The notes below the pieces were generated by a model. That model saw nothing but the letters and a program-made list of their open reading frames with translations. It had not been told where the DNA came from and did not search any database. Below, piece by piece: positions 5,101-58,577 of a stretch of DNA of 64,000 bases (the first letter of the stretch is position 1; every line of letters begins with the position of its first letter). Both the position numbers and the translations under genes were made by a program. Source of the DNA: Candidatus Omnitrophota bacterium (GTDB taxonomy: Bacteria; Omnitrophota; Omnitrophia; Omnitrophales; Aquincolibacteriaceae); the NCBI GenBank assembly GCA_030698625.1, contig JAUYMS010000028.1, positions 3,854 to 67,853 of the forward strand, written 5' to 3'.

Positions 5101-6405
5101 ATGAAGGTTGCACTTATTGATCTGAAGGAGAGCCGTAACGGCTGTAATAATAAGGACAAGGCAGGCGGTTTCGGCAACAAGTCACACGGCGAAGATCTGA
5201 TCTCTCGCATTTATGCTTATTTTAAGCATAGTCAAGTCGATGTTCCCGTAATGCACTTTGGCTATATGGCCGCTATCTTTCGCCAGCATGGGCATACAGT
5301 CAAATTCTACGATGCAGAGCCCGAGGACGAGGAACTGGTCATCATGGCTTCCTCGATCGTTGGTTATGACGAAGAACTCTCGTTTGCTCGCCGCATCCAA
5401 AAGCCCGGCAGGAAGATCGGTTTCATCAACGCATTTGCCACTGTGAAGCCGGAGATCTTTCTCAATGCGTCAGACTTTGTGATTAAGGGGGAACCGGAGC
5501 AGGCCACGATTGAAATTGCCAAAGGGAACGTGAAGCCAGAGGGGGTGATTGACAGCGCCTTGATCTTTGACCTCGAGAGTCTTCCGTTTCCGGACTGGGA
5601 TGGTTTTCCTGTTTCCCGGTACGGCTATTACCCGGTCTTGAAGAAGAAACCGCTTATTTCTATCCTCACGAGCCGGGGCTGTTCGTTTGACTGCAGCTAT
5701 TGTCCGTATATGGTCACTCAGACGGAAAGGTGGCGCAGGCGTTCCGCCAAGCATGTCTGCGATGAAATTGAATACCTTCAAAAGAAGTACAAGGTGCGCA
5801 GCCTCGTTTTCCGCGACATCATGTACACCCAAAGCAAACAGCGCGCCATTCAGATTTCTGAGGAGATCATTCGGCGCGGAATTCGCGTCGAGTGGAGTTG
5901 TGAAACTCGAGCCGATTGCTTGGAAGAGGATACACTGAGACTACTCCACCGGTCGGGGCTGCGAGTTATTCACTTAGGGATCGAGTCGCCAGAGGATCAG
6001 ATCGTCAAAGATTCGGGACGCATCCCAATCAAAGAGATGCAACAGGAGAAGATCGTGCGGCTGTGCGAGAAGATCGGAATCGACGTTATCGGATTTTATA
6101 TCCTCGGCTTTGTCGCGGACACTCAGAAATCCATGCGGCGAACGATTGATTACGCCAAACATTTGAATACGCCTCTGGCGCAGTTCGATGTCATGACGCC
6201 GTATCCCGGTACAAAATTCTATGATGAGATGAGGGACCGTATCTTGAGCCACAATTGGAAGGAATACACAACCCATCATCCGGTCGTTCGACTGGATAAT
6301 GTCTCTCACGAAGAAGTGCTCGACTTCAAGAATCGCGCTTACCGGGAGTATTATTTTCGGTCGAGTTGGATGCTCAAGCACGGACTGAAGACCGTCCTCG
6401 GATAA
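5101..6405 (+). CDS. B12-binding domain radical SAM protein
   Basis: CxxxCxxC radical SAM cluster motif 'SRGCSFDCSYCPY'. N-terminal Rossmann-like B12-binding region. The fold is class B radical SAM. Confidence 0.8.
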   Translation: MKVALIDLKESRNGCNNKDKAGGFGNKSHGEDLISRIYAYFKHSQVDVPVMHFGYMAAIFRQHGHTVKFYDAEPEDEELVIMASSIVGYDEELSFARRIQKPGRKIGFINAFATVKPEIFLNASDFVIKGEPEQATIEIAKGNVKPEGVIDSALIFDLESLPFPDWDGFPVSRYGYYPVLKKKPLISILTSRGCSFDCSYCPYMVTQTERWRRRSAKHVCDEIEYLQKKYKVRSLVFRDIMYTQSKQRAIQISEEIIRRGIRVEWSCETRADCLEEDTLRLLHRSGLRVIHLGIESPEDQIVKDSGRIPIKEMQQEKIVRLCEKIGIDVIGFYILGFVADTQKSMRRTIDYAKHLNTPLAQFDVMTPYPGTKFYDEMRDRILSHNWKEYTTHHPVVRLDNVSHEEVLDFKNRAYREYYFRSSWMLKHGLKTVLG

Positions 6406-6419
6406 GCGGAGAGATCACC

Positions 6420-7322
6420 ATGATTGCAATCACCGGAGCCACAGGCTTCATCGGTGTGCATCTTATCAAGGCCCTGCAGGAAAGGGGGGTGGCGTTTCGC
6501 TGCCTCGTCCGCGCTAATTCCACTAGGGTGAGCCAAGTAAAGGCTCTGACCGAGCATGTCGTCCAGGTCGACTACAGTCGACCCGAGACTTTGCGTAAAG
6601 CGTTTACGGGGTGCGATGTCCTTGTACATGCCTTGGGTCTCATTAACGGGAGTGAGGAAGAACTGCGCGAGGCCAATATTGAGTGCCCGCGCAGAGTGTT
6701 TGAGGCCGCAACGAAGGCCTCGGTCGAGCGCGTTGTTTTTATCAGCTCCGTAGCCGCTTTGAGACGGCATGGACCCTATGGCGTGACCAAGTCCGAGGGT
6801 GAGGATGTGCTGAGGAGTTCCGGGATTCCCTACATCATTCTACGTCCGGCATACGTTTATGGGGTGGGTGACGAAAACAATACGGCTCTGATGCTGCGAA
6901 CCTTAAAACGATTCCCGGTGATCCCTGTACTGGGAGGCGGGCAGTTCCGGTTACAGCCCGTGTACGTCGACGACGTCTGCGATCTGATCGTTCAAGCGCT
7001 CAGATGCAAAACCTGGAATCGGGCGTACACGGTTGCAGGACCGGAACAGATTACATTGTGGTCCATGCTGAAGTTGCTTGCCGGAGGTCTCGGGGTGAGT
7101 CGACTTCTTGTACCGATCCCGCTAAAACCGGTTCAGGCGTTGATGCGTTTTTATCTTCGCTTTTTTCCCGAGACCAAGCTCCCGGCCAAGCAGATACTCG
7201 AGTTGGATAAACACGAGGCCTTTGATATCTCAGAGACACAATCGAATTTTAATTTTAAGCCCCGGCCTTTTCGCGAAGGGGTTGAGGGGATGTTTACCGG
7301 CGACCTATGTGCGGCATTGTAG
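6420..7322 (+). CDS. NAD(P)-binding NmrA/NDUFA9-like SDR, sugar epimerase/reductase family
   Basis: Motif 'IAITGATGFIGVHLIKAL' GxxGxxG. Start chosen at ATG 6420 with upstream GGAGAG. Confidence 0.7.
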   Translation: MIAITGATGFIGVHLIKALQERGVAFRCLVRANSTRVSQVKALTEHVVQVDYSRPETLRKAFTGCDVLVHALGLINGSEEELREANIECPRRVFEAATKASVERVVFISSVAALRRHGPYGVTKSEGEDVLRSSGIPYIILRPAYVYGVGDENNTALMLRTLKRFPVIPVLGGGQFRLQPVYVDDVCDLIVQALRCKTWNRAYTVAGPEQITLWSMLKLLAGGLGVSRLLVPIPLKPVQALMRFYLRFFPETKLPAKQILELDKHEAFDISETQSNFNFKPRPFREGVEGMFTGDLCAAL

Positions 7323-9223
7323 GCTATTTTACTCCTGATCCCAAACAGGCCGACGGCTCTTTTTTGGCCGCGATGAATGAAACTCTAGTGCACCGGGGCC
7401 CCGATGCTTCGGGGTTGCTTCGACGACCGCATGCGGGTTTGGCGATGCGGCGTTTGAAGGTCATTGATCTCGAGACCGGAGACCAGCCGATTTCAAGCGA
7501 ATCCGGATCCTGCCATATTGTTTTCAACGGGGAGATATACAATTTCCGGGAGTTGCGGGACCGTCTTGAAAAGAAAGGGCATCATTTCCGAACTCGGTCT
7601 GATACGGAGGTTTTGCTACACGCCTACGTTGAGAAACGCGAAAAGTGTCTCGATGATCTCAATGGCATGTTTGCCTTTGCCGTCTACGATGAGAAAGATA
7701 AGAGCCTATTTGTGGCTCGAGACCGGCTTGGAATTAAGCCGCTCTTTTATGCGGAGACAGACAAAGGACTGGTCTTTGCTTCCGAGCTGAAGGCCTTTCT
7801 GGCTTGCCCGTGGATTTCCTGTGAACTTGATCTGCAAGCGCTTTCCCATTTTCTGAGCTTGAATTATTTGCCCCCTCCGTGGACACCCCTTAAGGGAATA
7901 AGACAATTGCTGCCGGGTCACTGGATGCGTGTTCAGGCCGACAAAGTTGAGGTGAAATCCTACTGGGAGATTCCGCTTGAAGAGAACCGTGACATCTCGG
8001 AGCGGGAGGCCGTCACAGAAATTACACGCCTTTTGCATCGCTCCATCGAAAGGCAGTTGATTGCCGATGTGCCCGTAGGCGCTTTCCTCAGCGGGGGGAT
8101 GGACTCAAGCACTCTGGTTGCTCTCATTAAAGAGCATCGGCACGATAAGATTAAAACCTTTTCGGTGGGCTTTGAAGACCCGGTCTATGACGAGACGCCT
8201 TATGCGAGGGAAGTGGCAAAGTACTTTGGCACCGAGCACTATGAAATGCTCTGTAAACCAGAAGATGTGAGCCGCTCTTTATCCCGCATTGCCTTTCAGG
8301 CGGACAACCTGTTGGCGGACCAGGCAGCCCTGCCTCTGTATCATGTCTCGCAATTGGCTAAACAGCATGTGACGGTCGCCTTGTCGGGTGATGGGGGTGA
8401 CGAATTATTTGTCGGATACCCGACATTTCATGCTGACCATTATCACTCTTTGTATACTCGTTTGCCGCGGTTCTTGCGGAAGAATGTGATCGAGGCCGGA
8501 ATACGGGCCCTGCCGGCCTCGACAGGAAAGCTCAGTTGGGACTATCGCGCCAAGAAATTTATTCAGGCGGGCGACATGTCTCGAGAGAAGGCGCATTACT
8601 GGTGGCGAACTATTTTTACGACCGACGAAAAGGAAAGCATTCTCACCGAGGCAGCGTGGCGTGCCATCCCCGACAAAGATGCCTTCGGGCTTTATGCCGA
8701 ATACTTTAACAGATCGACGGGCTCCAGTTTTGTGAATCGCGCTCTTTATGCGGACCAAAAGGTATGGCTGCCCGGCAATAACCTTTGTAAGGTAGATACC
8801 ATGTCGATGGCCCATGGGTTGGAAGCGCGTGTTCCCTTCCTGGATCACGAGTTGGTCGAAACCGTCGCGCGCCTGCCGGCCGAGATGAAGTTTCGCGGCC
8901 GCATATTGAAGTACCTGCTCAAGAAAGCGATGAAGGGCCGCCTACCCGAATCAATTATCAAGAGACGGAAGGCCGGATGGCATATGCCCATTGCCGGCTG
9001 GTTGCGGGGGCCCATGGCGGGTTATGCTCAGGATTTACTCCTACAGCAGAAGACGCCGGTCCATGGGCTATTTAAACAAGATGCGCTTGCGGCATTGATT
9101 CGAGAACATCGTGTCGGCAGGCATAATCACGCCTTCAAGATATGGGGACTTCTGGTTTTGAATCATTGGTCGGGCCAGTTCTTAAGCAAGCAGCAGGTCG
9201 GGCAGGCGGTGAGTGCGTCATGA
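7307..9223 (+). CDS. asnB: Asparagine synthase (glutamine-hydrolysing)-like amidotransferase
   Basis: N-terminal 'MCGIVGYF' with the class II glutamine amidotransferase Cys2. Central PP-loop 'SGGMDSS'. Length 638 aa. Confidence 0.85.
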   Translation: MCGIVGYFTPDPKQADGSFLAAMNETLVHRGPDASGLLRRPHAGLAMRRLKVIDLETGDQPISSESGSCHIVFNGEIYNFRELRDRLEKKGHHFRTRSDTEVLLHAYVEKREKCLDDLNGMFAFAVYDEKDKSLFVARDRLGIKPLFYAETDKGLVFASELKAFLACPWISCELDLQALSHFLSLNYLPPPWTPLKGIRQLLPGHWMRVQADKVEVKSYWEIPLEENRDISEREAVTEITRLLHRSIERQLIADVPVGAFLSGGMDSSTLVALIKEHRHDKIKTFSVGFEDPVYDETPYAREVAKYFGTEHYEMLCKPEDVSRSLSRIAFQADNLLADQAALPLYHVSQLAKQHVTVALSGDGGDELFVGYPTFHADHYHSLYTRLPRFLRKNVIEAGIRALPASTGKLSWDYRAKKFIQAGDMSREKAHYWWRTIFTTDEKESILTEAAWRAIPDKDAFGLYAEYFNRSTGSSFVNRALYADQKVWLPGNNLCKVDTMSMAHGLEARVPFLDHELVETVARLPAEMKFRGRILKYLLKKAMKGRLPESIIKRRKAGWHMPIAGWLRGPMAGYAQDLLLQQKTPVHGLFKQDALAALIREHRVGRHNHAFKIWGLLVLNHWSGQFLSKQQVGQAVSAS

Positions 9224-10143
9224 GTGAGACTCAGATGCAGACGGGGCGCATGGACTGGGTCCGGGAGTATTTGAAGGAGCTGCCTCATTGCCCGCTGTGC
9301 CATGGCCGTGGCGCAACGCCGTTGCTGGAATTAGGACCCTTGCGAGTTTGGCGCTGCAAAGATTGCAGATTGATGTATTTGAACCCATGTCTTTTTCCCG
9401 ACGAACAGAAAATGATTTTTTCCTCACCCGATTTCCTAACCCGTGTCAGCGAGTTCTTCGCGGATTATTATCAAGGCGAAACTTGGAACACTCCGCGGAC
9501 CCTAGCGGTTTATAACGGCGTGATGCGGGAGTTGGCCTCTTTGTTTCCGGCGAAAGGGAAAATTGTCGACATCGGGTGCGGCCGCGGCGCTTTTTTGAAG
9601 GCGGCGAAGGCCGGCGGGTGGACCGCTAGCGGAGTCGAACCCAACTTTGATGATGCTGAACACTTGCGGCGTGATCATGATATTGAAGTATTCCAAGGCG
9701 ACTTTTTTGAAGCCGCGCTTCCTGAGTCAGGATTCGATGTGGTTTCCATGTGGGATCTCATAGAGCATGTCCCCGAGCCGGGTGATTGGGTAAGGCGCTG
9801 TGCCAAACTACTCAGGCCGGGCGGCGCTCTCTTGCTGGCTACTCCGAATCATTTTAGCTTCTTAGATTTTCTGGCGTTCACGTCGTATCGTCTTAGCTTC
9901 GGAAATTTTTCTTACGCTTTGGAGAAGCTTTATACCGTCGATCATACCCTTTACCTGACACAGCATACCTTAAGGGACCTCTTTGAGCGCTCGGGGTTTA
10001 CCGTAGTTAAGACAATTAAGGTCAATACGGATCTGAGCCGCTATGCGATGGGCCCTTTGTTTCGCGGTATTGCGGAGGGATTGCTGGCGGTTGGCGGCCT
10101 GATGCAGCTTCACAATCGCGTGATAATGATTGCTATTAAATGA
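9220..10143 (+). CDS. Zn-ribbon class I SAM methyltransferase (paralog 1 of 3)
   Basis: N-terminal 'CPLCHG...CKDCRLMYLNP' four-Cys ribbon. SAM motif I 'VDIGCGRGAF'. Start at ATG 9220 (ATGA overlap with asnB). Confidence 0.8.
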   Translation: MSETQMQTGRMDWVREYLKELPHCPLCHGRGATPLLELGPLRVWRCKDCRLMYLNPCLFPDEQKMIFSSPDFLTRVSEFFADYYQGETWNTPRTLAVYNGVMRELASLFPAKGKIVDIGCGRGAFLKAAKAGGWTASGVEPNFDDAEHLRRDHDIEVFQGDFFEAALPESGFDVVSMWDLIEHVPEPGDWVRRCAKLLRPGGALLLATPNHFSFLDFLAFTSYRLSFGNFSYALEKLYTVDHTLYLTQHTLRDLFERSGFTVVKTIKVNTDLSRYAMGPLFRGIAEGLLAVGGLMQLHNRVIMIAIK

Positions 10144-10164
10144 TCAGTTTTCGGTCGGGTGAGG

Positions 10165-10193
10165 TTGACTTTTTTTCAGCCCGCTGTTAGAGT
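10165..10193 (+). promoter_or_regulatory. Sigma70-like promoter TTGACT-N17-TAGAGT
   Basis: Read in the 59-bp gap 10144..10202 upstream of the epimerase gene. Confidence 0.4.
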
Positions 10194-10202
10194 GTTGCCC
10201 TT

Positions 10203-11231
10203 ATGCCCCAACAATCACAAGCCAATCAGCAGACTTTAACCCCCGAACAGACCTACTTCACAGGCAAGCAGATCCTTGTAACCGGAGGCGCTGGGTTCCT
10301 GGGTAGTTTTCTATCTGAGGATCTTGTTGCCTGCGGTGCCAAAGTCACGATTTTTGACCGCTTCACTCACGGGCGAAGCCGTGTGCGGGGTCTCGAGAGC
10401 CATGAGTCGGTGGAGGTCATTCAGGGCAATGTGCAAAATTACAAAGAGCTTGTGCGTGCCGTTCGGGGTAAGGACTTAATCTGGCATTTGGCGGGTAACA
10501 CGGATATTCCTGCGGGACTTCGCGACACGAGTCTTGATCTGAAGGACGGCATCATTGCGACGCAAAATGTGCTGGAGGCCATGCGTGAGGCCGGTGTGAT
10601 GAAACTAGCTTTTCCTTCCTCGGGTGCCATCTACGGAGAACAGACATCCGGATTGCGCCGTGAAGATAAGGGCCCGACCCTCCCGATATCCCTTTACGGT
10701 GCGGGCAAGGTTTCCTGCGAAGCGTTTATAAGCGCTTATGCGCACTTATTTGATATTCAAGCATGGATCTTCCGCTTCGGCAATGTTATCAGCGGACGCA
10801 TTACGCACGGCGCTATCCGTGATTTTATCCGTAAGCTGCGTGCGAATCCGAAAGAGCTGGAAGTTCTTGGTGACGGGACTCAGACGAAGAGCTATCTCCT
10901 GGCGGAGGAATGTATCGAGGGTATGCGTTATACCATAGCGCACACAAACATTGAGGACGGCGCGGGCTTCTGCCACCTCTACAATCTCGGTGCTCCCGAC
11001 GAAACGGCTGTGCTCGACATTGCAAAGATCGTTATCGGGGAAATGGGCCTGCCGGGCTGCACGATCAAACTGAAGGGCGGAGAGCGCGGGTGGAGAGGCG
11101 ATCAAGCCAAGATTGCGCTCGACATCTCAAAGCTCCGCGCTTTCGGATGGGAACCCAAACACTCCTCCGATGATGCCGTGCGGATTTCCGTACGCCGGAT
11201 GATTGAGCAGAAGGGGATTGAGGATGAATAA
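10203..11231 (+). CDS. NAD-dependent sugar epimerase/dehydratase (extended SDR)
   Basis: 'ILVTGGAGFLGSFL' motif and YxxxK 'YGAGK'. Confidence 0.8.
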   Translation: MPQQSQANQQTLTPEQTYFTGKQILVTGGAGFLGSFLSEDLVACGAKVTIFDRFTHGRSRVRGLESHESVEVIQGNVQNYKELVRAVRGKDLIWHLAGNTDIPAGLRDTSLDLKDGIIATQNVLEAMREAGVMKLAFPSSGAIYGEQTSGLRREDKGPTLPISLYGAGKVSCEAFISAYAHLFDIQAWIFRFGNVISGRITHGAIRDFIRKLRANPKELEVLGDGTQTKSYLLAEECIEGMRYTIAHTNIEDGAGFCHLYNLGAPDETAVLDIAKIVIGEMGLPGCTIKLKGGERGWRGDQAKIALDISKLRAFGWEPKHSSDDAVRISVRRMIEQKGIEDE

Positions 11232-12543
11232 GGTCTGTGTCGCAGGTCTGTGGCATTTGGGGCTCGTAAGCGCGGCGACGCTCGCGGAGCTGGGTTTTCG
11301 TGTGACAGGCTTCGAGGCCGATACTCCGAAAATTGAGAATTTGCGTCAGGGAAAGCTCCCGCTTTATGAGCCCGGGTTGGAGGAGCTCGTCAGCGCTCAC
11401 CTTAAGAAGTCTTCGCTCCAGTTCGAAGATGACCCTGTCCGGGCCGTGAGCCAGGCGCAGGTCGTACTGATTACCTTTGATACTCCGGTTGATGACGAAG
11501 ACCGCGTGGACCTATCTGAGTTAGACAGCACCATCACACTAATCACGCCGCATCTGGATAAGAATGCGGTTGTGATTATTCATAGTCAGGTTCCCGTCGG
11601 TACGTCCGAGCGATGGCAAGTTGAGATCGACACAAAACGCCCCGGGGCGAGTATTGACGTCGTGTGTAGTCCCGAAAATTTGAGGTTGGGATGCGCCTTG
11701 GAACTTTACAAGAAGCCCGACATGATTGTCGTGGGAAGTGATTCGGAGCGCGCTCGAAAGAAGGCTGCGACATTCTTCGCTTTTTTTGATGCTCAAAAGA
11801 TTTATGTTTCACGGCGTACGGCTGAAATGGCTAAGCATGCCCTGAATGTTTTTTTTGCGACGAGTATCAGTTTTGCCAATCAGCTCGGAAACCTGTGCGA
11901 TCAAGTGGGCGCTGACGGCATGGAGATCGCGAGGATCTTGAAAGCAGACGGCCGTATCGGAAAACGGGCACAGGTAAGGCCGGGGCTGGGATTTGCCGGG
12001 GCTACCCTTGCGCGGGACCTTCGAGCCTTGCAGCGCTTGGGACATGAGGTCGGCGAGCCAACGCCGTTGATTGATGCGGTTCTTGACATTAACCAGCGCC
12101 AGACAGAGCGTGTGGTCCGGCTGATAGCACAGTATTTTGAAGGGGATATGCGGGGGAAGGTGGTCACGGTTCTGGGCTTAACGTACAAGCCGGGGACCAG
12201 TACGTTGAGGCGTTCTGCGGCACTCGAAATTATCCAGAAATTGCAGAACTTGGGAGCCGAAGTGCGGGCTCACGATCCGAAGGCTGACATTGGCGAGTAC
12301 TCGGGTAAGGTCCCTTTTGAATTTATCCGGGATCCCTATGAAGCGGTAGCCGGCGCTCATGCAATCTTGCTCACGACGGAATGGCCGGAGTATCGAGATC
12401 TCGACTTCGCAAAGATTCGCGAACGCATGAGCGGGGCTGTGATTCTTGATGCAAAAAACCATCTGGATGCAAAAAAAATCCGTGAGAAGGGTTTCGTCTA
12501 CCTGGAACTAGGGCGAGGGCAGTTAGCCGGGGAGAAAGTATGA
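11224..12543 (+). CDS. UDP-sugar 6-dehydrogenase, UDP-glucose/GDP-mannose dehydrogenase family
   Basis: N-terminal 'KVCVAGLWHLGLVSAATLAELGF' Rossmann fold. Central and C-terminal dehydrogenase domains. Start at ATG 11224. Confidence 0.8.
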   Translation: MNKVCVAGLWHLGLVSAATLAELGFRVTGFEADTPKIENLRQGKLPLYEPGLEELVSAHLKKSSLQFEDDPVRAVSQAQVVLITFDTPVDDEDRVDLSELDSTITLITPHLDKNAVVIIHSQVPVGTSERWQVEIDTKRPGASIDVVCSPENLRLGCALELYKKPDMIVVGSDSERARKKAATFFAFFDAQKIYVSRRTAEMAKHALNVFFATSISFANQLGNLCDQVGADGMEIARILKADGRIGKRAQVRPGLGFAGATLARDLRALQRLGHEVGEPTPLIDAVLDINQRQTERVVRLIAQYFEGDMRGKVVTVLGLTYKPGTSTLRRSAALEIIQKLQNLGAEVRAHDPKADIGEYSGKVPFEFIRDPYEAVAGAHAILLTTEWPEYRDLDFAKIRERMSGAVILDAKNHLDAKKIREKGFVYLELGRGQLAGEKV

Positions 12544-13559
12544 TGAGGGTCGGAATTGTCGGAGCGGGATTGCAGACCAAACGCCGTGCGCCGGTGTTTT
12601 CTCAGTCGAAAGACGCGGAGCTTGTGGTTATCTCAGCGGAGCATGAAGAGCACGCGAAGGCCATGGCGGAACAATTTAATTGCGAGTTTGCGCGGGGATG
12701 GGATTGGGTGGGCGAACGCGACGATTTGGATGTGATCCTAGTGTGCACGCCTCCCGATTTACATGAGAAAATCTCGATATTGGCGATGCGCACGGGCAAG
12801 CACGTGCTGTGTGAAAAGCCGCTTGCGCGCACGTTGGAAGAATGCCGGAACATGATAGCCGTCTCGAAGGAGACGGGCAAGGTGTTGAAATGTGGTTTTA
12901 ACCACCGCCATCACCCTGCCGTCTTAGAAGCCAAGCGGCAAGTTGATGCGGGCAAGATCGGCAAGCCGCTTTTTGCGCGAAGCCGCTACGGGATTATCGG
13001 TATGCCGGGCCGCGAGAAGGAATGGCGTGCGGATCCGGCGCGTGCCAGCGGCGGCCATCTGATGGAGCAGGGGATTCACGCGGTGGATTTGTCCCGGTGG
13101 TTCCTCGGAGATTTCCAGGAAGTGGCCTGTTTTCGGGAGACTCAGTATTGGTCCTTCGGTGACCTCGAAGACAACGCTTTCATGATGCTGAGAGGAAACG
13201 AGGGGCGCATGGCGTCGATCCATACTTCGCTCCTGCAATGGAAGAATCTGTTTTCCCTCGAGATCTACGGCGAAGAAGGGTATTTTGAGATCGAGGGGCT
13301 TGGGGGCTCTTATGGCACCGAAAAACTGCACTATTGTCCGAAGCACTATGACAGGCCCTTTGAGGTGCAGACGACCGAGTTCCGCGGAGGAGATACGTCG
13401 TGGCAGTTGGAGTGGGACGAATTTGTTGCCGCCATCAACGAAGATCGTGAACCCTTAGGGAGCGCGTTTGACGGGATGGAGGCGATGCGTCTTGTTTTTG
13501 AAGGTTATCGCTTTTCGGATGAACAGTCAGCGCGTCGGTCGGCGAACCCTGTTAGCTAG
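12540..13559 (+). CDS. Gfo/Idh/MocA-family oxidoreductase, WbpB-like candidate UDP-sugar 3-dehydrogenase
   Basis: 'MRVGIVGAGLQ' N-terminal Rossmann fold and conserved 'EKP' motif 'HVLCEKPLA'. Confidence 0.75.
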   Translation: MMRVGIVGAGLQTKRRAPVFSQSKDAELVVISAEHEEHAKAMAEQFNCEFARGWDWVGERDDLDVILVCTPPDLHEKISILAMRTGKHVLCEKPLARTLEECRNMIAVSKETGKVLKCGFNHRHHPAVLEAKRQVDAGKIGKPLFARSRYGIIGMPGREKEWRADPARASGGHLMEQGIHAVDLSRWFLGDFQEVACFRETQYWSFGDLEDNAFMMLRGNEGRMASIHTSLLQWKNLFSLEIYGEEGYFEIEGLGGSYGTEKLHYCPKHYDRPFEVQTTEFRGGDTSWQLEWDEFVAAINEDREPLGSAFDGMEAMRLVFEGYRFSDEQSARRSANPVS

Positions 13560-14880: not shown

Positions 14881-14883
14881 GTG

Positions 14884-15534: not shown

Positions 15535-15552
15535 GGGTCTCTCCTTTAGGGG

Positions 15553-44895: not shown

Positions 44896-45909
44896 TTGAG
44901 AATGCAGAATTGTCTTGTTACAGGTGGTGCAGGTTTTATTGGAAGTCATTTGGTAGAGCGCTTGTTGCGTGACGGTCACCGAGTGACTGTGCTGGATAAC
45001 CTTAGTACAGGTCGCCTGAGCAATCTGTCGTTTGCGCAAGATAATACCTCTCTGACTTTTCATCAACAGGATGTCGCGGAGGCGTCTGCCATTGAGGGGT
45101 TCTTCAGCGGAGTTGATTGGGTGTTTCACTTGGCGGCGTTAGCAGATATTGTCCCGTCGATAGAGCGGCCGCTTGATTACCATCGCGCGAATGTCGACGG
45201 TACGGTTGCTGTGCTGGAAGCTTCGCGAAAGGCGGGAGTTAAAAGATTCGTCTACACGGCGTCATCTTCCTGTTACGGCATCCCCGATAAATACCCTACT
45301 CCCGAGTCCGCGCCTATTCGTCCCCAATACCCCTATGCCCTAACCAAATACATCGGCGAGACGACAGCGATGCACTGGACGCAGGTATACGGGTTGCCCG
45401 TTGTGTCTCTGCGGCTCTTTAACGTTTATGGACCGCGGTCGCGGACATCAGGAACATATGGCGCCGTATTTGGAGTGTTTTTGGCCCAGAAGCTTGCCGG
45501 TAAGCCATTTACGGTTGTTGGTGACGGAAAACAAACGAGGGACTTCACTTTTGTCTCGGATGTGGTTGATGCCTTCGTCGCAGCGGCGGCTTCAGATAAG
45601 TCCGGTGAGATCTTGAACATTGGTTCGGGCAATACGTACAGCGTTAATCTTCTGGTGAGTCTCCTGGGCGGAGAGGTTGTTTATATTCCCAAGCGCCCAG
45701 GGGAGCCCGACTGCACGTTTGCGGACACGGCAAGGATCCGCGACGTGCTCTCATGGACTCCGCGAGTCAGTTTTGAAGAGGGCGTCCAAGTGATGCTCGA
45801 CAATATCGAATGTTGGCGGGAGGCCCCTGTCTGGAACGAGTCGTCCATCGCTGAAGCGACACGGGGTTGGTTCCAATATCTTAGTCCCGAAGGAGCTTCG
45901 AAGCAATGA
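44896..45909 (+). CDS. NAD-dependent sugar epimerase/dehydratase (UDP-glucuronate decarboxylase / 4-epimerase-like)
   Basis: 'CLVTGGAGFIGSHLVERL' motif and YxxxK 'YALTK'. Confidence 0.8.
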   Translation: MRMQNCLVTGGAGFIGSHLVERLLRDGHRVTVLDNLSTGRLSNLSFAQDNTSLTFHQQDVAEASAIEGFFSGVDWVFHLAALADIVPSIERPLDYHRANVDGTVAVLEASRKAGVKRFVYTASSSCYGIPDKYPTPESAPIRPQYPYALTKYIGETTAMHWTQVYGLPVVSLRLFNVYGPRSRTSGTYGAVFGVFLAQKLAGKPFTVVGDGKQTRDFTFVSDVVDAFVAAAASDKSGEILNIGSGNTYSVNLLVSLLGGEVVYIPKRPGEPDCTFADTARIRDVLSWTPRVSFEEGVQVMLDNIECWREAPVWNESSIAEATRGWFQYLSPEGASKQ

Positions 45910-47447
45910 CCACCAAACTGGAAATTATTAAAGAAAAGATTTTCGAGATCGACCGCATCGATGGCGAACTGGATGCAGCGCGTAGCCAAGGGAAAAAGGT
46001 CGTGCAATGCCACGGGGTTTTTGACCTTCTTCACATCGGTCATATTCGGCACTTAAACAGGGCCAAGAAGATGGGGGATGTGCTCGTTGTTTCGATTACG
46101 CCGGACCGCTTTGTGAACAAGGGCCCCCACCGCCCCGCGTTTCCGGACCAATTGCGCGCGGAGGCTATTGCCGCGCTCGACTGTGTCGACTATGTCGTGA
46201 TCAACAACTGGCCCAAGGCAATTGAAGCAATCAAGCTCATCAAGCCGGATATGTACGTCAAAGGACGTGACTACCGTGATGCGGCCAAGGATCACACCGG
46301 CGGAATTTTGGAAGAAGAGTCGGCCGTGCAATCGATCGGCGGCAAGCTCGTCTTCACCGATGAGATTGAGTTCAGTTCCACAAGCCTGATCAATCAGCAC
46401 CTCGGCGTTTTTCCGAAAGAAGTCACGCAGTATCTGACCGATTTTGCCAAGCGCTATTCCTCAGACGATGTGATCGGATTTATCAAGCAAGAGCAGCCCC
46501 TTAAGGTCCTGGTAATCGGTGAGGCCATTGTCGACGAGTATCAGTATTGTGAAGCCATCGGGAAGTCATCGAAAGAGCCCATGCTTGCGGTTAAGCGTCT
46601 TTCGACGGAAAAATTTGCGGGGGGTATCTTGGCGGTTGCCAATCACGTCGCGAATTTCTGCGATGAAGTCGGCCTTGTCACAATGCTGGGCACGAGGCAT
46701 TCTCAGGAAGAGTTTATCCGAGAGAAGATGAACGAGAAAATCCACAATGTGTTCCTCTATCGAGAGGATTCGCCCACGATTGTGAAGCGCCGCTTTGTGG
46801 AGAGCTACTTCTTTACGAAGATGATGGAACTCTATGAGATTAACGATGGCTTGCTCACAGTTGAAGACAATCGCGCACTTTGCAAAGCCCTTGAGGCCGA
46901 GGTTCCTAGGTATGACGTTGTGATCGTTGTTGATTTCGGGCATGGCCTGATGAGTTCGGACGCGGTTAAAGTTATTTGCGATAAAGCCAAGTTTTTGGCC
47001 GTTAACGCGCAGTCGAATGCCGGCAATATCGGATACCAGACGATTTTAAAATACCCTCGAGCGGATTATATTTGCATGGCCGAGAATGAGATTCGAATGG
47101 AAGCGCGTGACCGGCGAGGTGACCTGAGACAGATGATTATCGACTTAGCGAAGAAAGTTAAATGTGAGCGTATTACGGTGACCCGCGGTAAAAACGGGTG
47201 TTTGTGCTATTGCCGTGAGGAAGGTTTTTCGGAAGTCCCGGCATTTGCCGGCCAAGTACTTGACCGCATGGGTGCGGGCGATTCATTTCTTTCGCTGACC
47301 TCGGGGTTGGTTGCCCGAAAAGTGCCCACCGAAGTTGTGGGCTTTGTTGGGAATGTAACTGGGGCACAAGCGGTGGCTACGGTGGGCCATCGGCGTTCCG
47401 TGGAACGTGCGCCGCTTTTTAAGCACATCGAATCATTGCTGAAGTAA
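45906..47447 (+). CDS. Bifunctional cytidylyltransferase-like nucleotidyltransferase (N-terminal) and PfkB sugar kinase (C-terminal); HldE-like with reversed domain order
   Basis: N-terminal 'CHGVFDLLHIGHIRHL' H/TxGH motif. C-terminal PfkB 'GAGDSF' signature. Confidence 0.7.
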   Translation: MTTKLEIIKEKIFEIDRIDGELDAARSQGKKVVQCHGVFDLLHIGHIRHLNRAKKMGDVLVVSITPDRFVNKGPHRPAFPDQLRAEAIAALDCVDYVVINNWPKAIEAIKLIKPDMYVKGRDYRDAAKDHTGGILEEESAVQSIGGKLVFTDEIEFSSTSLINQHLGVFPKEVTQYLTDFAKRYSSDDVIGFIKQEQPLKVLVIGEAIVDEYQYCEAIGKSSKEPMLAVKRLSTEKFAGGILAVANHVANFCDEVGLVTMLGTRHSQEEFIREKMNEKIHNVFLYREDSPTIVKRRFVESYFFTKMMELYEINDGLLTVEDNRALCKALEAEVPRYDVVIVVDFGHGLMSSDAVKVICDKAKFLAVNAQSNAGNIGYQTILKYPRADYICMAENEIRMEARDRRGDLRQMIIDLAKKVKCERITVTRGKNGCLCYCREEGFSEVPAFAGQVLDRMGAGDSFLSLTSGLVARKVPTEVVGFVGNVTGAQAVATVGHRRSVERAPLFKHIESLLK

Positions 47448-47459
47448 AGGGAGAACCCA

Positions 47460-48071
47460 ATGGATTTTCAGTATCTGCCGATCACGAATTACCTTCGGCG
47501 TCTTGGGGAAATTGCCTTATGGACGGAGGTGAACGCCGGTGCGGGAGAGAACACGAATGCTATTTCGCTGGATGACGGCTCGAAGCGGGCGGTGCAGATG
47601 ATTCTGGACGCCAAGTTTGGGCAATCGAAGATCATGCTGGTCGGTAACGGTGGAAGTGCCGCGATCGTCAGTCACATGCAAAACGATCTCTGCGATTCCG
47701 TCAAAGCCCGGGCGATGGTCTTTAACGAGCCGCCTTTCTTGACTGCCGTATCGAATGACCACGGATACGCGACGTTTTTTGAAGACGCTGTGAAACTCTG
47801 GGCAGAGCCCGGAGATGTACTGATTGCAATCAGCAGCTCAGGGAAGTCCGAGAATATTCTGCGCGCGGTGCGTGCGGCTCGGGCCAAAGATTCAGAAGTG
47901 ATCACCCTGTCGGGATTCGATGAGAAGAACCCGCTAAGAAGTTTGGGTGACCTCAACTTTTATGTGCCTGCAAATGAATACGGTATTGTCGAAACGGCGC
48001 ACGGAATCCTATGCCACTATATGAGCGACGCTGCTCTGGCAGCTTTAAACGTGCCGAGGCCGGTCGCTTAA
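47460..48071 (+). CDS. gmhA: SIS-domain phosphoheptose isomerase (copy 2)
   Basis: 'IMLVGNGGSAAIVSH' SIS motif. Confidence 0.7.
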   Translation: MDFQYLPITNYLRRLGEIALWTEVNAGAGENTNAISLDDGSKRAVQMILDAKFGQSKIMLVGNGGSAAIVSHMQNDLCDSVKARAMVFNEPPFLTAVSNDHGYATFFEDAVKLWAEPGDVLIAISSSGKSENILRAVRAARAKDSEVITLSGFDEKNPLRSLGDLNFYVPANEYGIVETAHGILCHYMSDAALAALNVPRPVA

Positions 48072-48073
48072 GC

Positions 48074-49102
48074 ATGAGAAAGTTCCAAGAAATACTGGTC
48101 ACGGGTGGGGCTGGATACGTCGGCGCGCGGTTAGTGCCTAAGCTCCTCAAACGCGGCTATAAGGTGCGCGTCCTTGACCTGTATCTTTTTGGCGAAGGAT
48201 TCTGGCCGGAGTGGGATGGATCCGCAAAACTGACCGAAATCAAAGGGGATTTGCGGGATACGGAAACGGTCCGCCGGGCGGTTCAAAGATGTGATGCGGT
48301 CATCCATTTAGCGTGCATTTCAAATGACCCAAGCTTCGAGTTAAACCCGGATCTCGGGCGCTCCATCAATTACGATGCTTTTCGACCGCTCGTGACCATG
48401 AGCCGGGATGCGGGTGTGAAACGGTTTATCTACGCGTCTTCCTCGAGCGTATACGGAATCAGTGACCGCCCAAACGTGACCGAAGATCACCCGCTTAAGC
48501 CGCTCACAGATTACAGCAAGTATAAAGCGCTCTGCGAAGAGATTCTTGCCGAGTACGAGAGCCCCGACTTTACAACGGTGGTTCTGAGGCCGGCGACGGT
48601 TTGCGGGTATTCGCCCAGGCAACGCCTCGACTTAACGGTGAATATTTTGACGAATCACGCTGTGCATAACGGCAAGATTAAAGTTTTTGGCGGAGAGCAG
48701 CTGCGCCCCAATATCCACATTGAGGACCTTACGGACCTGTATGTTCAATTGTTGGAACTACCTGCTGAAAAGGTGGCGGGTAAGACGTACAACGCGGGTT
48801 ACGAAAATCAAAAGGTGAAGGACATTGCGATGGCTGTCAGCAGCGTGGTTCGTGCAATGATACCGGAGCGCTCAGACCTCGCAATAGAGACAACACCGAC
48901 TGACGACAATCGCTCGTATCACATTTCTTCTGCAAAAATAAAGGGCGAGTTGGGATTTGCCCCCAAGAGGACCATCGAAGATGCGGTCAAGGATTTAGTG
49001 GCTGCTTTCCAGGCAGGCAAAATTCCGAATGCGATGACGGACAGCCGCTATTTTAATATCAAGACCATGCAGGAAAGCGTACTGGCGCAGCCGCAGTCAT
49101 GA
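48074..49102 (+). CDS. NAD-dependent sugar epimerase/dehydratase
   Basis: 'ILVTGGAGYVGARLV' motif. Internal ATG start chosen. Confidence 0.75.
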   Translation: MRKFQEILVTGGAGYVGARLVPKLLKRGYKVRVLDLYLFGEGFWPEWDGSAKLTEIKGDLRDTETVRRAVQRCDAVIHLACISNDPSFELNPDLGRSINYDAFRPLVTMSRDAGVKRFIYASSSSVYGISDRPNVTEDHPLKPLTDYSKYKALCEEILAEYESPDFTTVVLRPATVCGYSPRQRLDLTVNILTNHAVHNGKIKVFGGEQLRPNIHIEDLTDLYVQLLELPAEKVAGKTYNAGYENQKVKDIAMAVSSVVRAMIPERSDLAIETTPTDDNRSYHISSAKIKGELGFAPKRTIEDAVKDLVAAFQAGKIPNAMTDSRYFNIKTMQESVLAQPQS

Positions 49103-50067
49103 AAACGCATCCCTCTATCGAATTATATCGCGAAATGTTGCGCATTCGGCGCGTCGAAGAACGTATTGCCGAGCTCTATCCGGAGCAGGAAATCCGCTGC
49201 CCTGTCCATTTGTGTATCGGCCAAGAGGGTGTGGCTGTCGGCGTATCTGCAAACCTGAAGCCCCAAGATTATGTCCTCAGCGGCCATCGTTCGCACGGGC
49301 ATTACTTAGCACGCGGCGGAAACTTGAAGGCCATGATGGCAGAGCTGTGGGGCAAGGTTACGGGTTGCTGTCAGGGTAAGGGCGGCTCGATGCACTTGAT
49401 TGATTTGTCGGTCGGATTTCTGGCATCGACGCCGATTGTGGCCAGTACGATTCCGATCGCCGTCGGCGCCGCCTTGGGTTCGGTGATGAAGAACGAGGAT
49501 CGTGTCACGGTCGTGTACTTTGGCGAAGCCGCGACTGAGGAGGGCACGTTCCACGAAGCGGCTAATTATGCGGTCTTGAAGAAGTTGCCCGTGGTTTTTG
49601 TTTGCGAAAATAACCTTTATTCTGTCTATTCGCCGTTGGAAGTACGCCAACCGCCCGAACGCTCCCTCGTCGAGTTAGCGCGGGGCCACGGAATGGAAAG
49701 TCACTGGGAAGATGGCAACGATGTCCTTGCGGTGAAACGCTTGAGTGAACACGCCATCGATCATGCCCGCGCGGGTAAAGGTCCCAGCCTTCTGGAGTTT
49801 TCGACCTACCGTTGGTATGAGCACTGCGGTCCGAATCTTGATAACCATATCGGTTATCGCACGGAAGAAGAATTCCTCACATGGAAGAAGACTTGCCCCC
49901 TTTTGAAGTTAAGAGAGTCTTTACTTGCTGAAGGGATTTGTGCTGAGCCGGATCTGTCGTTGATCGAAGAAGATTTGAAGGCTGAAATTGATGACGCAGT
50001 TCGGTTTGCAAAAGAAAGCCCGTTTGGTGAAGAAGATTTGGCCTATCAACATATCTATGCAACCTGA
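49099..50067 (+). CDS. Thiamine-diphosphate-dependent dehydrogenase E1 alpha subunit
   Basis: TPP motif region 'GQEGVAVG...YRSHGH...GKGGSMH'. Confidence 0.8.
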   Translation: MKTHPSIELYREMLRIRRVEERIAELYPEQEIRCPVHLCIGQEGVAVGVSANLKPQDYVLSGHRSHGHYLARGGNLKAMMAELWGKVTGCCQGKGGSMHLIDLSVGFLASTPIVASTIPIAVGAALGSVMKNEDRVTVVYFGEAATEEGTFHEAANYAVLKKLPVVFVCENNLYSVYSPLEVRQPPERSLVELARGHGMESHWEDGNDVLAVKRLSEHAIDHARAGKGPSLLEFSTYRWYEHCGPNLDNHIGYRTEEEFLTWKKTCPLLKLRESLLAEGICAEPDLSLIEEDLKAEIDDAVRFAKESPFGEEDLAYQHIYAT

Positions 50068-50075
50068 CGAGCGTC

Positions 50076-51293
50076 ATGCCTGCAGACAAGTTTGATATTG
50101 CGATCATCGGTGGCGGGATCGTCGGGCTGGCGACAGCGCTAAGTCTTGCTAAAAGCCGGCCCGATTTACGGCTGTGCGTGTTTGAGAAGGAAGCATTGAT
50201 CGGGGAGCATCAGACATCGCATAATAGCGGCGTGATTCATTCCGGCATTTATTACGCGCCGGGCTCTTTGAAAGCGAGTCTTTGTGTGAAAGGCGTCGGC
50301 GCGATGATTTCTTTTGCTAAGGAAAACGGCGTGCCCTTTGAGCAGTGCGGGAAAGTTATTGTGGCAACCCGAGAAGAACAGAGACCGAGACTCAGAGCGC
50401 TATTCGAGCGGGGAATAGCAAACGGCGTTCCCGGTCTGCGTATACTTAACCGAACGGAGCTCCTTGAGCTCGAGCCGCATGCTGAAGGACTCGAAGCCAT
50501 TCACTCGCCGACTACCGGCATCATTGATTTTCGAAGGGCGGCCGAAGTCATGGCCGAAAAGTTTAAGGCCGGCGGCGGTAGCGTAGAGACCATGGCGAAA
50601 ATGGTTTCAGCTGAACATACCGGCTCCGAGCTTGTGTTGAAAATAGGCCGGATGGAAATCCGGACAAAGTATTTGATTAATTGCGGCGGTCTTTATTCGG
50701 ACACGATCGCCTTGATGCTCGGGGTTGAGCCGGGCGTGAGGATTATTCCGTTTCGCGGCGAGTACTATCTTATCCGGAATGAAAAGCGGCATTTAGTGAA
50801 GAATCTTATTTACCCGGTTCCAGACCCGGACTTACCTTTTTTGGGTGTTCATCTGACGCGTACAGTGGACGGGAAATTGGAAGCCGGACCGAACGCGATC
50901 CTGGCAACAGCGCGTGAGGGGTATCGGCGATCCGATTGGAAGACCGGAGAGTTTCTTGCAACATTGAGTAGCCCGCATTTTTGGAACATGGCGCGCCGTT
51001 ATTGGAAGACCGGTATTTTGGAGTGTTACCGTGCGGTGAGTAAGCGATCATTTGCGCGAGAGCTGCAAGGTCTGATAAAGGGCATTAGCGAAGATGATCT
51101 GGTGGATGGGCCAAGCGGCGTGCGGGCCCAATGCGTGGCAGAGGATGGCACGCTGGTTCACGATTTCAAGATTGTTGAAGGGCCGCGGTCAATTCACGTT
51201 GTAAACGTACCGTCACCGGCGGCAACGGCATCACTGGCGATCGGGGAGTATATCGCGGGGCTCGGAATTAAATCCTATGACGAGAGAACTTAA
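50076..51293 (+). CDS. FAD-dependent oxidoreductase (L-2-hydroxyglutarate oxidase / DAO family)
   Basis: 'FDIAIIGGGIVGLATA' dinucleotide fold and a 'SGVIHSGIYY' motif typical of this 2-hydroxyacid oxidase (LhgO-type) family. Confidence 0.75.
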   Translation: MPADKFDIAIIGGGIVGLATALSLAKSRPDLRLCVFEKEALIGEHQTSHNSGVIHSGIYYAPGSLKASLCVKGVGAMISFAKENGVPFEQCGKVIVATREEQRPRLRALFERGIANGVPGLRILNRTELLELEPHAEGLEAIHSPTTGIIDFRRAAEVMAEKFKAGGGSVETMAKMVSAEHTGSELVLKIGRMEIRTKYLINCGGLYSDTIALMLGVEPGVRIIPFRGEYYLIRNEKRHLVKNLIYPVPDPDLPFLGVHLTRTVDGKLEAGPNAILATAREGYRRSDWKTGEFLATLSSPHFWNMARRYWKTGILECYRAVSKRSFARELQGLIKGISEDDLVDGPSGVRAQCVAEDGTLVHDFKIVEGPRSIHVVNVPSPAATASLAIGEYIAGLGIKSYDERT

Positions 51294-52338: not shown

Positions 52339-52339
52339 T

Positions 52340-57636: not shown

Positions 57637-57655
57637 AGGTGTCTCTGTGGTGAAA

Positions 57656-58576: not shown

Positions 58577-58577
58577 T

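Follow-up and report, generated by a model that had tools for sequence, protein, structure and literature searches.

A 64,000-nt stretch of contig JAUYMS010000028.1 from a Candidatus Omnitrophota bacterium (hereafter the window) encodes two radical S-adenosylmethionine (SAM) enzymes, rSAM-1 (5101..6405, + strand, 434 aa) and rSAM-2 (60117..61937, + strand, 606 aa), which are best explained as distantly related proteins doing different jobs in one surface-glycan island. By open reading frame (ORF) translation, Pfam, structural model and fold match, rSAM-1 is AprD4/HpnJ-like; rSAM-2 is a class-B radical SAM enzyme with a B12-binding domain. According to our joint reading, to which we give somewhat less than an even chance, rSAM-1 is a cobalamin-free deoxy-sugar enzyme of the AprD4 type and rSAM-2 a class-B enzyme that most likely acts in C-methylation. 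An earlier reading of the bare sequence (the original prediction) had taken both for B12-binding enzymes of the GenK, Fom3 and TsrM types, the second as a copy of the first, and had associated them with C-methylated or otherwise unusual branched or deoxy sugars.

The two radical SAM ORFs had been placed correctly. They correspond to the deposited proteins MDP3920116.1 (rSAM-1) and MDP3920167.1 (rSAM-2), both annotated merely as 'radical SAM protein'. The ATG of rSAM-1 is located 8 nt past the stop codon of an upstream PMT-type gene and is preceded by the ribosome-binding site aagga. The rSAM-2 ATG at 60117 lies 10 nt past the stop codon of a methyltransferase gene; the longest ORF would begin at 60033, and the 606-aa form is identical to MDP3920167.1. 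Each protein carries a CxxxCxxC motif and passes the Pfam Radical_SAM model PF04055 (rSAM-1 47.8 bits, rSAM-2 62.2 bits, threshold 29.5). As each has hundreds of homologues, the best of them at E-values between 1e-240 and 0, we exclude that the two genes are chance ORFs. We also rejected the view that they are two copies of one gene: their similarity is at the superfamily level only, and lengths, partner genes and nearest structures differ. That the genes are real is a direct observation, and so are the domains, folds, conserved motifs and neighbourhood counts given below.

Neither protein reached the cut-off of any named family in the NCBIfam scan, and every match obtained was to a family annotated as B12-binding radical SAM. 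Classification by the TIGR04072 model ('lipid biosynthesis B12-binding/radical SAM protein'), which the original prediction had suggested, failed with 104 bits for rSAM-1 and 57.3 bits for rSAM-2 against a cut-off of 360. Likewise unmet were the cut-offs of the models for HpnJ (TIGR03471; rSAM-1 188.5 bits, rSAM-2 85 bits, cut-off 577.6), AprD4 (NF033070; 104.8 and 40.5 bits, equivalog cut-off 500), BchE (rSAM-1 131 bits, cut-off 481), TsrM (TIGR04428; 35.2 and 20.2 bits, cut-off 500) and the P-methyltransferases Sden_1168 (NF038361; 76 and 117.6 bits, cut-off 575) and PhpK (TIGR04479; 78.9 and 84.1 bits, cut-off 600). No GenK- or Fom3-specific model was among the NCBIfam matches of either protein. 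In the searchable literature we found no account of the rSAM-1 or rSAM-2 family, nor of radical SAM enzymes within GT2/GT-C glycosylation systems.

The fold and core motifs of rSAM-1 are closest to AprD4

The AlphaFold2 model of rSAM-1, built on 105 relatives, had a predicted local distance difference test (pLDDT) score of 93.8. Its best Foldseek match in the PDB was AprD4 (6fd2), aligned over the full length with 465 aligned columns (TM-score by query, TMq, 0.85; by target, TMt, 0.81; E 8e-28). TsrM, the match after AprD4, reached TMq 0.62, and the range for the B12 enzymes TsrM, MgmA, OxsB, CysS and TokK and for MiaB/RimO was 0.56-0.69. Concordantly, the family profile derived from the 105 relatives matched AprD4 at 170 bits (E 6e-49). 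Overall identity to AprD4 is 26%. Within aa 154-403, AprD4 has the same residue at 18 of the 21 positions that are invariant in the family, and it agrees at 20 of 31 near-invariant ones; in annotated HpnJ of Paraburkholderia graminis 14/21 invariant residues are identical.

The CxxxCxxC motif of rSAM-1 (C194, C198 and C201; 5680..5703, +), read from the translation, is invariant across the 105 relatives. The motif W-S-C-E-T-R-A-D (aa 265-272; 5893..5916, +) is common to AprD4 and not to HpnJ: the consensus W265-x-C-E-T-R-x-D272 reads WWCETRID in AprD4 and WSCNAKAN in HpnJ, and F237-R-D is FRD in AprD4 and FDD in HpnJ. About 80 metagenomic relatives, down to 35% identity, all have the motifs GEPE, FRD, G-[IV]-E-[SAT] and TP-x-P-G-T, three of them with I/LRD in place of FRD. 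Most of these relatives also retain ETR, replaced by T-H, T-K or T-S in about eight, and a loop motif that usually reads NKDxxGGxG and corresponds to the conserved loop N17-K-D-x-A-G-G-F-G25 of rSAM-1.

AprD4 does not bind cobalamin, although it clusters with B12 enzymes in similarity networks (PMC12931638). The N-terminal domain of rSAM-1 (aa 1-150; 5101..5550, +), with five beta strands in the model, is a degenerate B12-type Rossmann-like domain. It is homologous to the B12 domain and aligns weakly to that of MgmA, GEPE lying opposite GEGE. The B12-binding model PF02310 scored 24.4 bits, below the threshold of 32.1, and aligned to residues 44-80 only; about 10 of the 120 rSAM-1 relatives among the matches listed carry the PF02310 flag. 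The Gly-Gly on beta4 that shapes the dimethylbenzimidazole pocket in OxsB, TsrM and TokK (PMC9204698) is replaced by G107-F-I-N110-A111, and the two positions are predominantly G-A across the family (G 78%, A 71%). Invariant, by contrast to this lost Gly-Gly, is GEPE 130-133, which includes G130-E131, the Gly-Glu at the start of alpha5 that is a class-B feature (PMC9204698). PF02310 scored 76-88 bits on genuine B12-binding radical SAM paralogues in rSAM-1-related loci, and annotated HpnJ is itself sub-threshold at 20.7 bits. The three best NCBIfam families of rSAM-1 (HpnJ, BchE and AprD4) are all non-methylases. Judged by sequence and model, rSAM-1 is not a credible B12 methylase and probably no longer binds cobalamin.

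A tblastn search of plasmids yielded distant matches only (<30% identity), among them the annotated hpnJ used for comparison; a Clostridium match was unrelated, lying within a cluster for ribosomally synthesized and post-translationally modified peptides. On the 494-kb conjugative Paraburkholderia graminis plasmid pPHS1_P (L127 5794-9534), a string of hpnJ, hpnI and an LPG-synthase-domain gene stands beside an IS6 transposase, with a second hpnI 3 kb further on.

Many rSAM-1 relatives are coupled to a reductase or an aminotransferase

The gene downstream of rSAM-1 (6420..7322, +) encodes a 300-aa extended short-chain dehydrogenase/reductase (SDR) of the NDUFA9/HpnA-like type, and its ATG at 6420 lies 14 nt after the rSAM-1 stop codon. 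The N-terminal GxxGxxG, Arg31 after beta2 and Y120-x-x-x-K124 are intact. Its best NCBIfam match was HpnA (91 bits against a cut-off of 368) and its PDB matches were complex I 39-kDa (NDUFA9) subunits.

The neighbourhoods of rSAM-1 relatives were sampled in 80 metagenome loci and several contigs, labelling ORFs by similarity to window proteins, and the next gene on the same strand was counted in the 64 loci with room downstream. An SDR followed in 31/64 (30 HpnA/NDUFA9-like and one other SDR). The next gene encoded a DegT-family sugar aminotransferase in 12 loci, all from a clade at 35-37% identity to rSAM-1, and a genuine B12 radical SAM enzyme in 4. The remaining next genes were mostly MBOAT, GT2, Wzy-type or unassigned ORFs, with a mobile-element gene (AbiEi antitoxin or integrase) in three. 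Many junctions with the next gene are 4-nt overlaps. The trio of rSAM-1, SDR and an AsnB-type amidotransferase recurs in three relatives (L047, L048, L053) and in a Planctomycetota locus (L131).

Upstream of rSAM-1, Pfam identified a GT2 (18-821, cut by the window start), a YfhO-type GT-C (796-3141) and a PMT-type GT-C (3239-5092), all on the + strand. A PMT-type GT-C gene also directly precedes rSAM-1 in the closest relatives (L001, L047-L054), and GT2 and LPG_synthase_TM genes recur near rSAM-1 relatives (L001, L004). The rest of the rSAM-1 gene string (7307..13559, +) encodes the AsnB-type amidotransferase, a methyltransferase (9220-10143), an SDR epimerase/dehydratase, a nucleotide-sugar 6-dehydrogenase and a GFO oxidoreductase.

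In loci of candidate phyla radiation, archaeal and Planctomycetota origin (L064 5179-6582, L066 6407-7834, L131 2636-7026), rSAM-1 relatives adjoin one or two genuine B12-binding radical SAM paralogues. As these paralogues are the PF02310-positive ones scored above, some glycan loci join AprD4-like and genuine B12 enzyme types in one operon. A different setting is that of two DPANN-type archaeal relatives (L003 8001-10693, L132 5762-8448), which sit in a conserved housekeeping neighbourhood of genes for ribosomal proteins, TFIIB and Trm5, with an overlapping DHH/DHHA1 phosphoesterase gene followed by Whirly.

rSAM-2 is a credible class-B enzyme in a recurring cassette

In rSAM-2 the B12-binding Rossmann domain (aa 57-180; 60285..60656, +) passed PF02310 (41.8 bits, threshold 32.1). 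The orthologue from Rhodopseudomonas palustris is above threshold too, and 120/120 relatives among the matches listed carry PF02310. G151-G152, aligned to the Gly-Gly of TokK, is invariant in 98 relatives. E175 and E177 are invariant too, and position 176 is A in the window protein and G (42%) or S (38%) in the family, so that of the Gly-Glu at the alpha5 start (A176-E177) only the Glu is strict (E177 100%). The single conserved Fe-S motif is CxxxCxxC (C262, C266, C269; 60900..60923, +), invariant in the family alignment. The AlphaFold2 model (pLDDT 90.2) shows the Rossmann domain and the radical SAM barrel, followed by a C-terminal domain of helices, about 150 residues long (aa ~450-606; 61465..61934, +), which is highly conserved, with W510, F511, N514, N518 and W537 among its invariant residues, and matches no Pfam family. 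Foldseek returned TsrM, AprD4, MgmA, CysS, TokK and OxsB at TMq 0.47-0.57 and thus no specific nearest neighbour. The best full-length NCBIfam matches were the P-methyltransferase families Sden_1168 (118 bits) and PhpK (84 bits).

Altogether, these sequence and model features make both the B12-binding domain and the assignment of rSAM-2 to class B credible. The prediction of a B12-binding domain holds for this protein, with its PF02310 score, invariant Gly-Gly and fold, and not for rSAM-1, which is sub-threshold, has lost the Gly-Gly and takes the AprD4 fold. Similarly, the GenK/Fom3/TsrM class fits rSAM-2 by hidden Markov model, motifs and a place in the class-B structure set that includes TsrM, though no named cut-off was reached, and does not fit rSAM-1, nearest AprD4. 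A Rossmann domain, whose absence would have made them ordinary radical SAM enzymes in that prediction, is present in both models; its presence does not separate AprD4-type from true B12 enzymes.

Relatives at 53-70% identity to rSAM-2 occur in Planctomycetia, Elusimicrobia, Woesearchaeota, Microcoleus and other cyanobacteria, Nitrospina, Opitutia, Lindowbacteria, Rhodospirillales, Tistlia and Rhodopseudomonas; the protein of R. palustris TIE-1 (ACF02564.1) is 57% identical and a Prochlorococcus homologue 43%. The genes around rSAM-2 (all +) are conserved along with it. Directly upstream (56878..60106) stand an adh_short SDR (56878-57636), an orphan 324-aa ORF (57602-58576), a second adh_short SDR (58578-59426) and a class I methyltransferase (59423-60106). 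Downstream (61934..63860) follow an extended SDR (61934-62830), with a 4-nt overlap with rSAM-2, and a Zn-dependent alcohol dehydrogenase (Zn-ADH; 62796-63860). Further upstream (44896..56869) the cassette encodes an SDR, an HldE-like kinase/nucleotidyltransferase, a GmhA-like SIS protein, an SDR, a pyruvate dehydrogenase (PDH)-E1 alpha-like protein, an LhgO-like oxidase, a PDH-E1 beta-like protein, two DegT aminotransferases, a GDSL-like protein and a 4,6-dehydratase-like SDR.

Homologues of these window genes were counted as neighbours in 24 close rSAM-2 loci. The 227-aa methyltransferase was found in 75%, lying within two genes of rSAM-2 in 16/24 (67%), and the Zn-ADH in 18/24 (75%). Next came the 4,6-dehydratase-like SDR (71%), PDH-E1 beta (62%), PDH-E1 alpha (58%), the HldE-like protein (46%), the 298-aa SDR (10/24, 42%) and the GmhA-like SIS protein (38%). 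Versions of the cassette are kept in Nitrospina, Elusimicrobia, Woesearchaeota, Microcoleus, Opitutia, Prochlorococcus and others; the Nitrospina-type order is SIS, HldE, E1 alpha, E1 beta, SDR, SDR, rSAM-2, methyltransferase, NUDIX, Zn-ADH. This conservation across loci implies that the window from 44.9 to 63.9 kb is one instance of a recurring cassette, which past the window end runs on into GT2, GT4, methyltransferase and CDP-alcohol phosphotransferase genes. In Rhodopseudomonas, Tistlia and a Rhodospirillales metagenome-assembled genome, the genes after rSAM-2 are a pair of adh_short SDRs, and the window has both SDR types just upstream. The minimal sets of Rhodopseudomonas and Tistlia consist of rSAM-2 and two adh_short SDRs, plus a HAD hydrolase in Rhodopseudomonas.

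The SDR, methyltransferase and epimerase neighbours that had been described for the two enzymes are thus present, and the statement that such enzymes are rare in surface-glycan loci fails for both families, since most of the related loci sampled carry sugar or glycan genes, those of the two DPANN-type rSAM-1 relatives being exceptions.

Proposed reactions and alternatives

For both enzymes we infer the individual chemical steps, the substrates and the cobalamin occupancy from the features described above. AprD4 works with the NADPH reductase AprD3 (PMC12931638, PMC5461906), and radical SAM enzymes of the DesII type yield keto sugars (PMC11434129). As the constant companion of rSAM-1 is a ketoreductase or an aminotransferase, the enzyme most simply makes a keto sugar, and the keto-sugar logic of AprD4/AprD3 and DesII/DesV leads us to propose radical dehydration and reduction, that is, deoxygenation. 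rSAM-1 would use only a [4Fe-4S] cluster and SAM, its N-terminal domain having presumably descended from a B12-binding Rossmann fold. It would take a hydrogen from a carbinol carbon of the sugar and drive elimination of the hydroxyl next to it to give a deoxy-keto sugar, and the adjacent NADPH-type SDR would reduce the ketone, resulting in net deoxygenation. In the more distant DegT-linked branch an aminotransferase would act in place of the SDR and lead to an amino-deoxy sugar. The substrate is probably a nucleotide- or polyprenyl-phosphate-linked hexose, hexosamine or uronate, and the product would reach the cell surface through the GT2, YfhO and PMT-type GT-C enzymes encoded nearby.

A more specific version of this proposal, which we regard as unlikely, is that rSAM-1 and the SDR remodel a polyprenyl-phosphate sugar after loading by GT2 and before transfer by the YfhO- and PMT-type GT-C enzymes outside the membrane. 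It is suggested by the HpnJ-like affinity of rSAM-1 (the HpnJ substrate being a lipid-linked glucosamine), the SDR, which is NDUFA9/HpnA-like and may be membrane-peripheral, and the GT2, LPG-synthase-TM and GT-C genes that recur nearby. This version would, just as improbably, place cobalamin-independent radical deoxygenation, or amination in the DegT clade, inside the GT2/flippase/GT-C 'three-component' systems of bacteria and archaea.

rSAM-2 would most likely methylate an unactivated carbon of a nucleotide-activated sugar or alditol intermediate. Methylation is the leading guess because the best full-length matches are P-methyltransferases and most characterised class-B enzymes are methylases. 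C-methylation is plausible, as is an unusual branched or methylated sugar as the product to which the cassette contributes. A phosphonate pathway was rejected because no phosphoenolpyruvate mutase was found; neither this enzyme nor other phosphonate genes were detected among the window ORFs scanned with Pfam and NCBIfam. Regarding the unusual sugars of the original prediction, the wording 'otherwise unusual ... deoxy sugars' suits rSAM-1 better than C-methylation, which probably does not apply to it, and branched or methylated sugars suit the rSAM-2 cassette.

Several points weigh against this pair of assignments. The HpnJ model scores rSAM-1 higher (188 bits) than the AprD4 model does (105 bits), both scores being far below the cut-offs, and part of the agreement with AprD4 may reflect SAM binding or structure instead of the type of reaction. 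As rSAM-1 keeps GEPE, a motif typical of B12 domains, it may still bind cobalamin. The two DPANN-type relatives, with about 45% identity and all motifs, have neither an SDR nor glycan genes beside them, and no recognisable sugar-nucleotide genes were found beside the Rhodopseudomonas and Tistlia rSAM-2 orthologues in the stretch examined. For rSAM-2 nothing separates methylation from other class-B chemistry; OxsB, BchE and ThnL are not methylases, and an NAD(P) oxidoreductase, which a methylase does not need, is nearly always nearby. The chemistry proposed for both families is predicted.

The last two observations on rSAM-2 lead to the alternative that survives best, although we still consider it rather unlikely: rSAM-2 might be a cobalamin-binding non-methylase catalysing a rearrangement, cyclisation, epimerisation or dehydration, with the SDRs and the Zn-ADH handling a carbonyl product or substrate. 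In nearly all of the 40 loci examined an NAD(P) oxidoreductase, be it the 298-aa SDR, adh_short SDRs or the Zn-ADH, is encoded no more than a few genes away, the minimal sets of Rhodopseudomonas and Tistlia reduce to rSAM-2 and two SDRs, and class-B non-methylases such as OxsB and BchE are known (PMC9204698). What speaks for methylation instead is that the best full-length families, Sden_1168 and PhpK, are methyltransferases and that most of the characterised class-B enzymes methylate (PMC12931638).

For rSAM-1, the SDR and DegT coupling would be fitted equally well by a sugar dehydrogenase of the BtrN type, or of the kind seen as a DesII side activity, as this gives the same keto product. Here a secondary alcohol would be converted to a ketone without loss of oxygen and the SDR would re-reduce it from the other face, amounting to epimerisation; in the DegT-linked clade transamination of the ketone would give an amino sugar. 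Substrate geometry sets the lyase or dehydrogenase outcome in DesII (PMC11434129). However, the nearest fold and active-site motifs of rSAM-1 belong to a dehydratase, and such alcohols are usually oxidised without radical chemistry by NAD-dependent SDRs and GFO enzymes, which are plentiful here. We hold this alternative to be quite unlikely.

Distinctly improbable, in our assessment, is an HpnJ- or Cds-like ring contraction, by which rSAM-1 would make a five-membered cyclitol head group, for display or for transfer by GT-C, from a hexose or hexosamine carried on a lipid. HpnJ gave the best NCBIfam score of rSAM-1 (188.5 bits, profile positions 67-441 of 472) and is likewise sub-threshold for PF02310, and HpnA is the best family of the SDR partner. 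The hpnJ locus order of hpnJ, hpnI (GT2) and an LPG-synthase-domain gene also has a counterpart in the GT2 and LPG_synthase_TM genes of two rSAM-1-related loci (L001, L004). On the other hand, the HpnJ cut-off of 577.6 is three times this score, HpnJ has FDD and CNAKAN in place of FRD and CETRxD, and neither a squalene-hopene cyclase nor other hpn genes were present among the ~55 window ORFs scanned. The proposed contraction leaves no ketone, so that the coupling to an SDR or aminotransferase would be unexplained (PMC13459092), and HpnJ chemistry is supported by genetics only.

That both proteins are cobalamin-dependent class-B C-methyltransferases of surface sugars is very unlikely: an N-terminal Rossmann-like domain precedes the radical SAM core in both, all their NCBIfam matches are annotated as B12-binding, GEPE is kept in rSAM-1 and some of its relatives are PF02310-flagged, but rSAM-1 itself combines a sub-threshold PF02310 score and a missing Gly-Gly with the fold and core motifs of cobalamin-free AprD4, top three families (HpnJ, BchE, AprD4) of non-methylases and reductase or aminotransferase partners.

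Further features of the rSAM-2 cassette and the glycan island

Within the cassette, a protein passing the LhgO model (511 bits, cut-off 299) is encoded between the PDH-E1 alpha-like and beta-like genes (49099-52338, +). No LhgO-like homologue was detected in the related cassettes examined, most of which have adjacent E1 genes. The HldE-like protein (45906-47447, +), below the HldE cut-offs, has the nucleotidyltransferase N-terminally and the PfkB kinase C-terminally, the reverse of the domain order in Escherichia coli HldE. Together with the Zn-ADH and the CDP-alcohol phosphotransferase (L129 17388-18215), it makes a CDP-alditol or CDP-sugar-phosphate product a possibility. For the 324-aa ORF between the upstream SDRs (57602-58576, +) there was no Pfam match and no PDB sequence match, and it was not seen in other rSAM-2 loci.

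In R. palustris TIE-1 (L005; CP001096.1 4359742-4381643) the rSAM-2 orthologue belongs to a compact HAD, rSAM, SDR, SDR string. Adjoining this string is an arsenic island with genes for ACR3, ArsC, a low-molecular-weight phosphatase, ArsR proteins, ArsP and an ArsM-like methyltransferase. We judged this arsenic link to be coincidental: the ars genes lie on the opposite strand, and none were noticed in the other loci, which were not searched for ars genes.

Nearly all 64 kb of the window (GC content 52%) were assigned to the surface-glycan island by Pfam and NCBIfam scans of ~55 window ORFs. It includes GT2, YfhO-type and PMT-type transferases, a minus-strand GDP-heptose set, a nonulosonate set, HisH/HisF paralogues and a Wzx flippase, and the sugar-tailoring string spans from 44.9 kb to the window end. 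The minus-strand genes (13527-17321) form a complete GDP-D-glycero-alpha-D-manno-heptose-type set of a GmhB-like HAD protein, an HddC-like nucleotidyltransferase, a GmhA-like SIS protein and an HddA-like GHMP kinase, in which a fructose-6-phosphate aldolase/transaldolase is embedded (230 bits, cut-off 246). This set recalls the LmbR/N/P/K/O octose pathway, and its product may be a heptose or an octose. A pseudaminic/legionaminic-type set (21249-31523, +) comprises a PseB-like dehydratase, DegT, a PseG-GNAT fusion, NeuB, GNAT and a CMP-transferase. An FkbH_N-domain protein and a MaoC-dehydratase/SDR fusion encoded with them point to an unusual N-acyl group. The HisH/HisF (imidazole glycerol phosphate synthase) paralogues at 32807-34236 (+) are followed by a methyltransferase; in other loci HisH/HisF pairs are linked to acetamidino groups on sugars. 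Two ORFs of 380 and 641 aa at 35283-38347 (+) had no Pfam match.

Implications

A review from 2017 listed AprD4 as the only radical SAM diol dehydratase, from aminoglycoside antibiotic pathways only (PMC5461906). If the rSAM-1 family shares its chemistry, radical deoxygenation of sugars would be widespread in the ordinary making of cell-envelope glycans. Omnitrophota, Planctomycetota, Thaumarchaeota and DPANN-type archaea would all employ it, and more than 1000 relatives of rSAM-1 are detectable. In that case rSAM-1 would also be a concrete example of why the annotation 'B12-binding radical SAM' should not be taken to mean 'methylase'. The rSAM-2 family, with 53-70% identity over a range that reaches from Omnitrophota to cyanobacteria, Nitrospina and Rhodopseudomonas, is the marker of a recurring and uncharacterised cassette for sugar tailoring, whose product is probably a branched or methylated higher-carbon sugar or alditol phosphate. 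As an orthologue is present in the genetically tractable R. palustris TIE-1, the function of rSAM-2 is directly testable.

Comparison with known systems

The closest known counterpart of rSAM-1 and its SDR is the pair of 1,2-diol dehydratase and reductase, AprD4/AprD3, that acts in the C3'-deoxygenation of apramycin and tobramycin. AprD4 has in common with rSAM-1 the full-length fold, a degenerate B12-like N-terminal domain and the 18/21 core residues, including FRD, CETRxD, G-x-ES and TPYPGT. In both systems a reductase gene is the direct partner, the SDR being likened to AprD3 by predicted function. Unlike AprD4, to which it is ~26% identical (105 bits against the NF033070 cut-off of 500), rSAM-1 has a conserved 40-residue insert after beta1, consisting of the NKDxAGGFG loop and a helix. 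The settings differ as well: AprD4 belongs to an actinomycete aminoglycoside cluster, whereas rSAM-1 is found with GT2 and GT-C in surface-glycan assembly in Omnitrophota, Planctomycetota and archaea.

HpnJ, which converts bacteriohopanetetrol-glucosamine to a cyclitol ether in hopanoid synthesis according to genetic evidence only, gives the highest HMM score for rSAM-1. The two proteins are similar in length and share a degenerate B12 domain, with G-A for G-G, and a glycine-rich loop after beta1; GT2 and LPG-synthase-type neighbours are common to HpnJ and some rSAM-1 relatives. HpnJ differs in its hopanoid context and in the absence of FRD and CETRxD, and coupling to an SDR or DegT has not been described for hpnJ. 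The logic of DesII/DesV in TDP-desosamine synthesis, where a deaminase yields a 3-keto sugar for a subsequent aminotransferase (PMC11434129), matches that of the DegT-linked rSAM-1 clade at 35-37% identity. DesII itself, unlike rSAM-1, has no Rossmann-like N-terminal domain and was absent from the sequence and fold matches of rSAM-1.

With TsrM, TokK, CysS, OxsB and MgmA, rSAM-2 shares the domain order, the Gly-Gly on beta4 and the Glu at the start of alpha5 (PMC9204698). It differs from them in its own C-terminal motif set and its sugar-tailoring context, at TM-scores of 0.47-0.57 and identities of 14-19%. The matches to the Sden_1168/PhpK/Fom3 group (118 and 84 bits) span the B12 domain and the core, although the rSAM-2 scores are one fifth of the Sden_1168 and PhpK cut-offs. 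The substrate of Fom3 is cytidylylated. The rSAM-2 locus, with its cytidylyltransferase-like HldE variant and a CDP-alcohol phosphotransferase gene just past the window, is reminiscent of this cytidylylated substrate.

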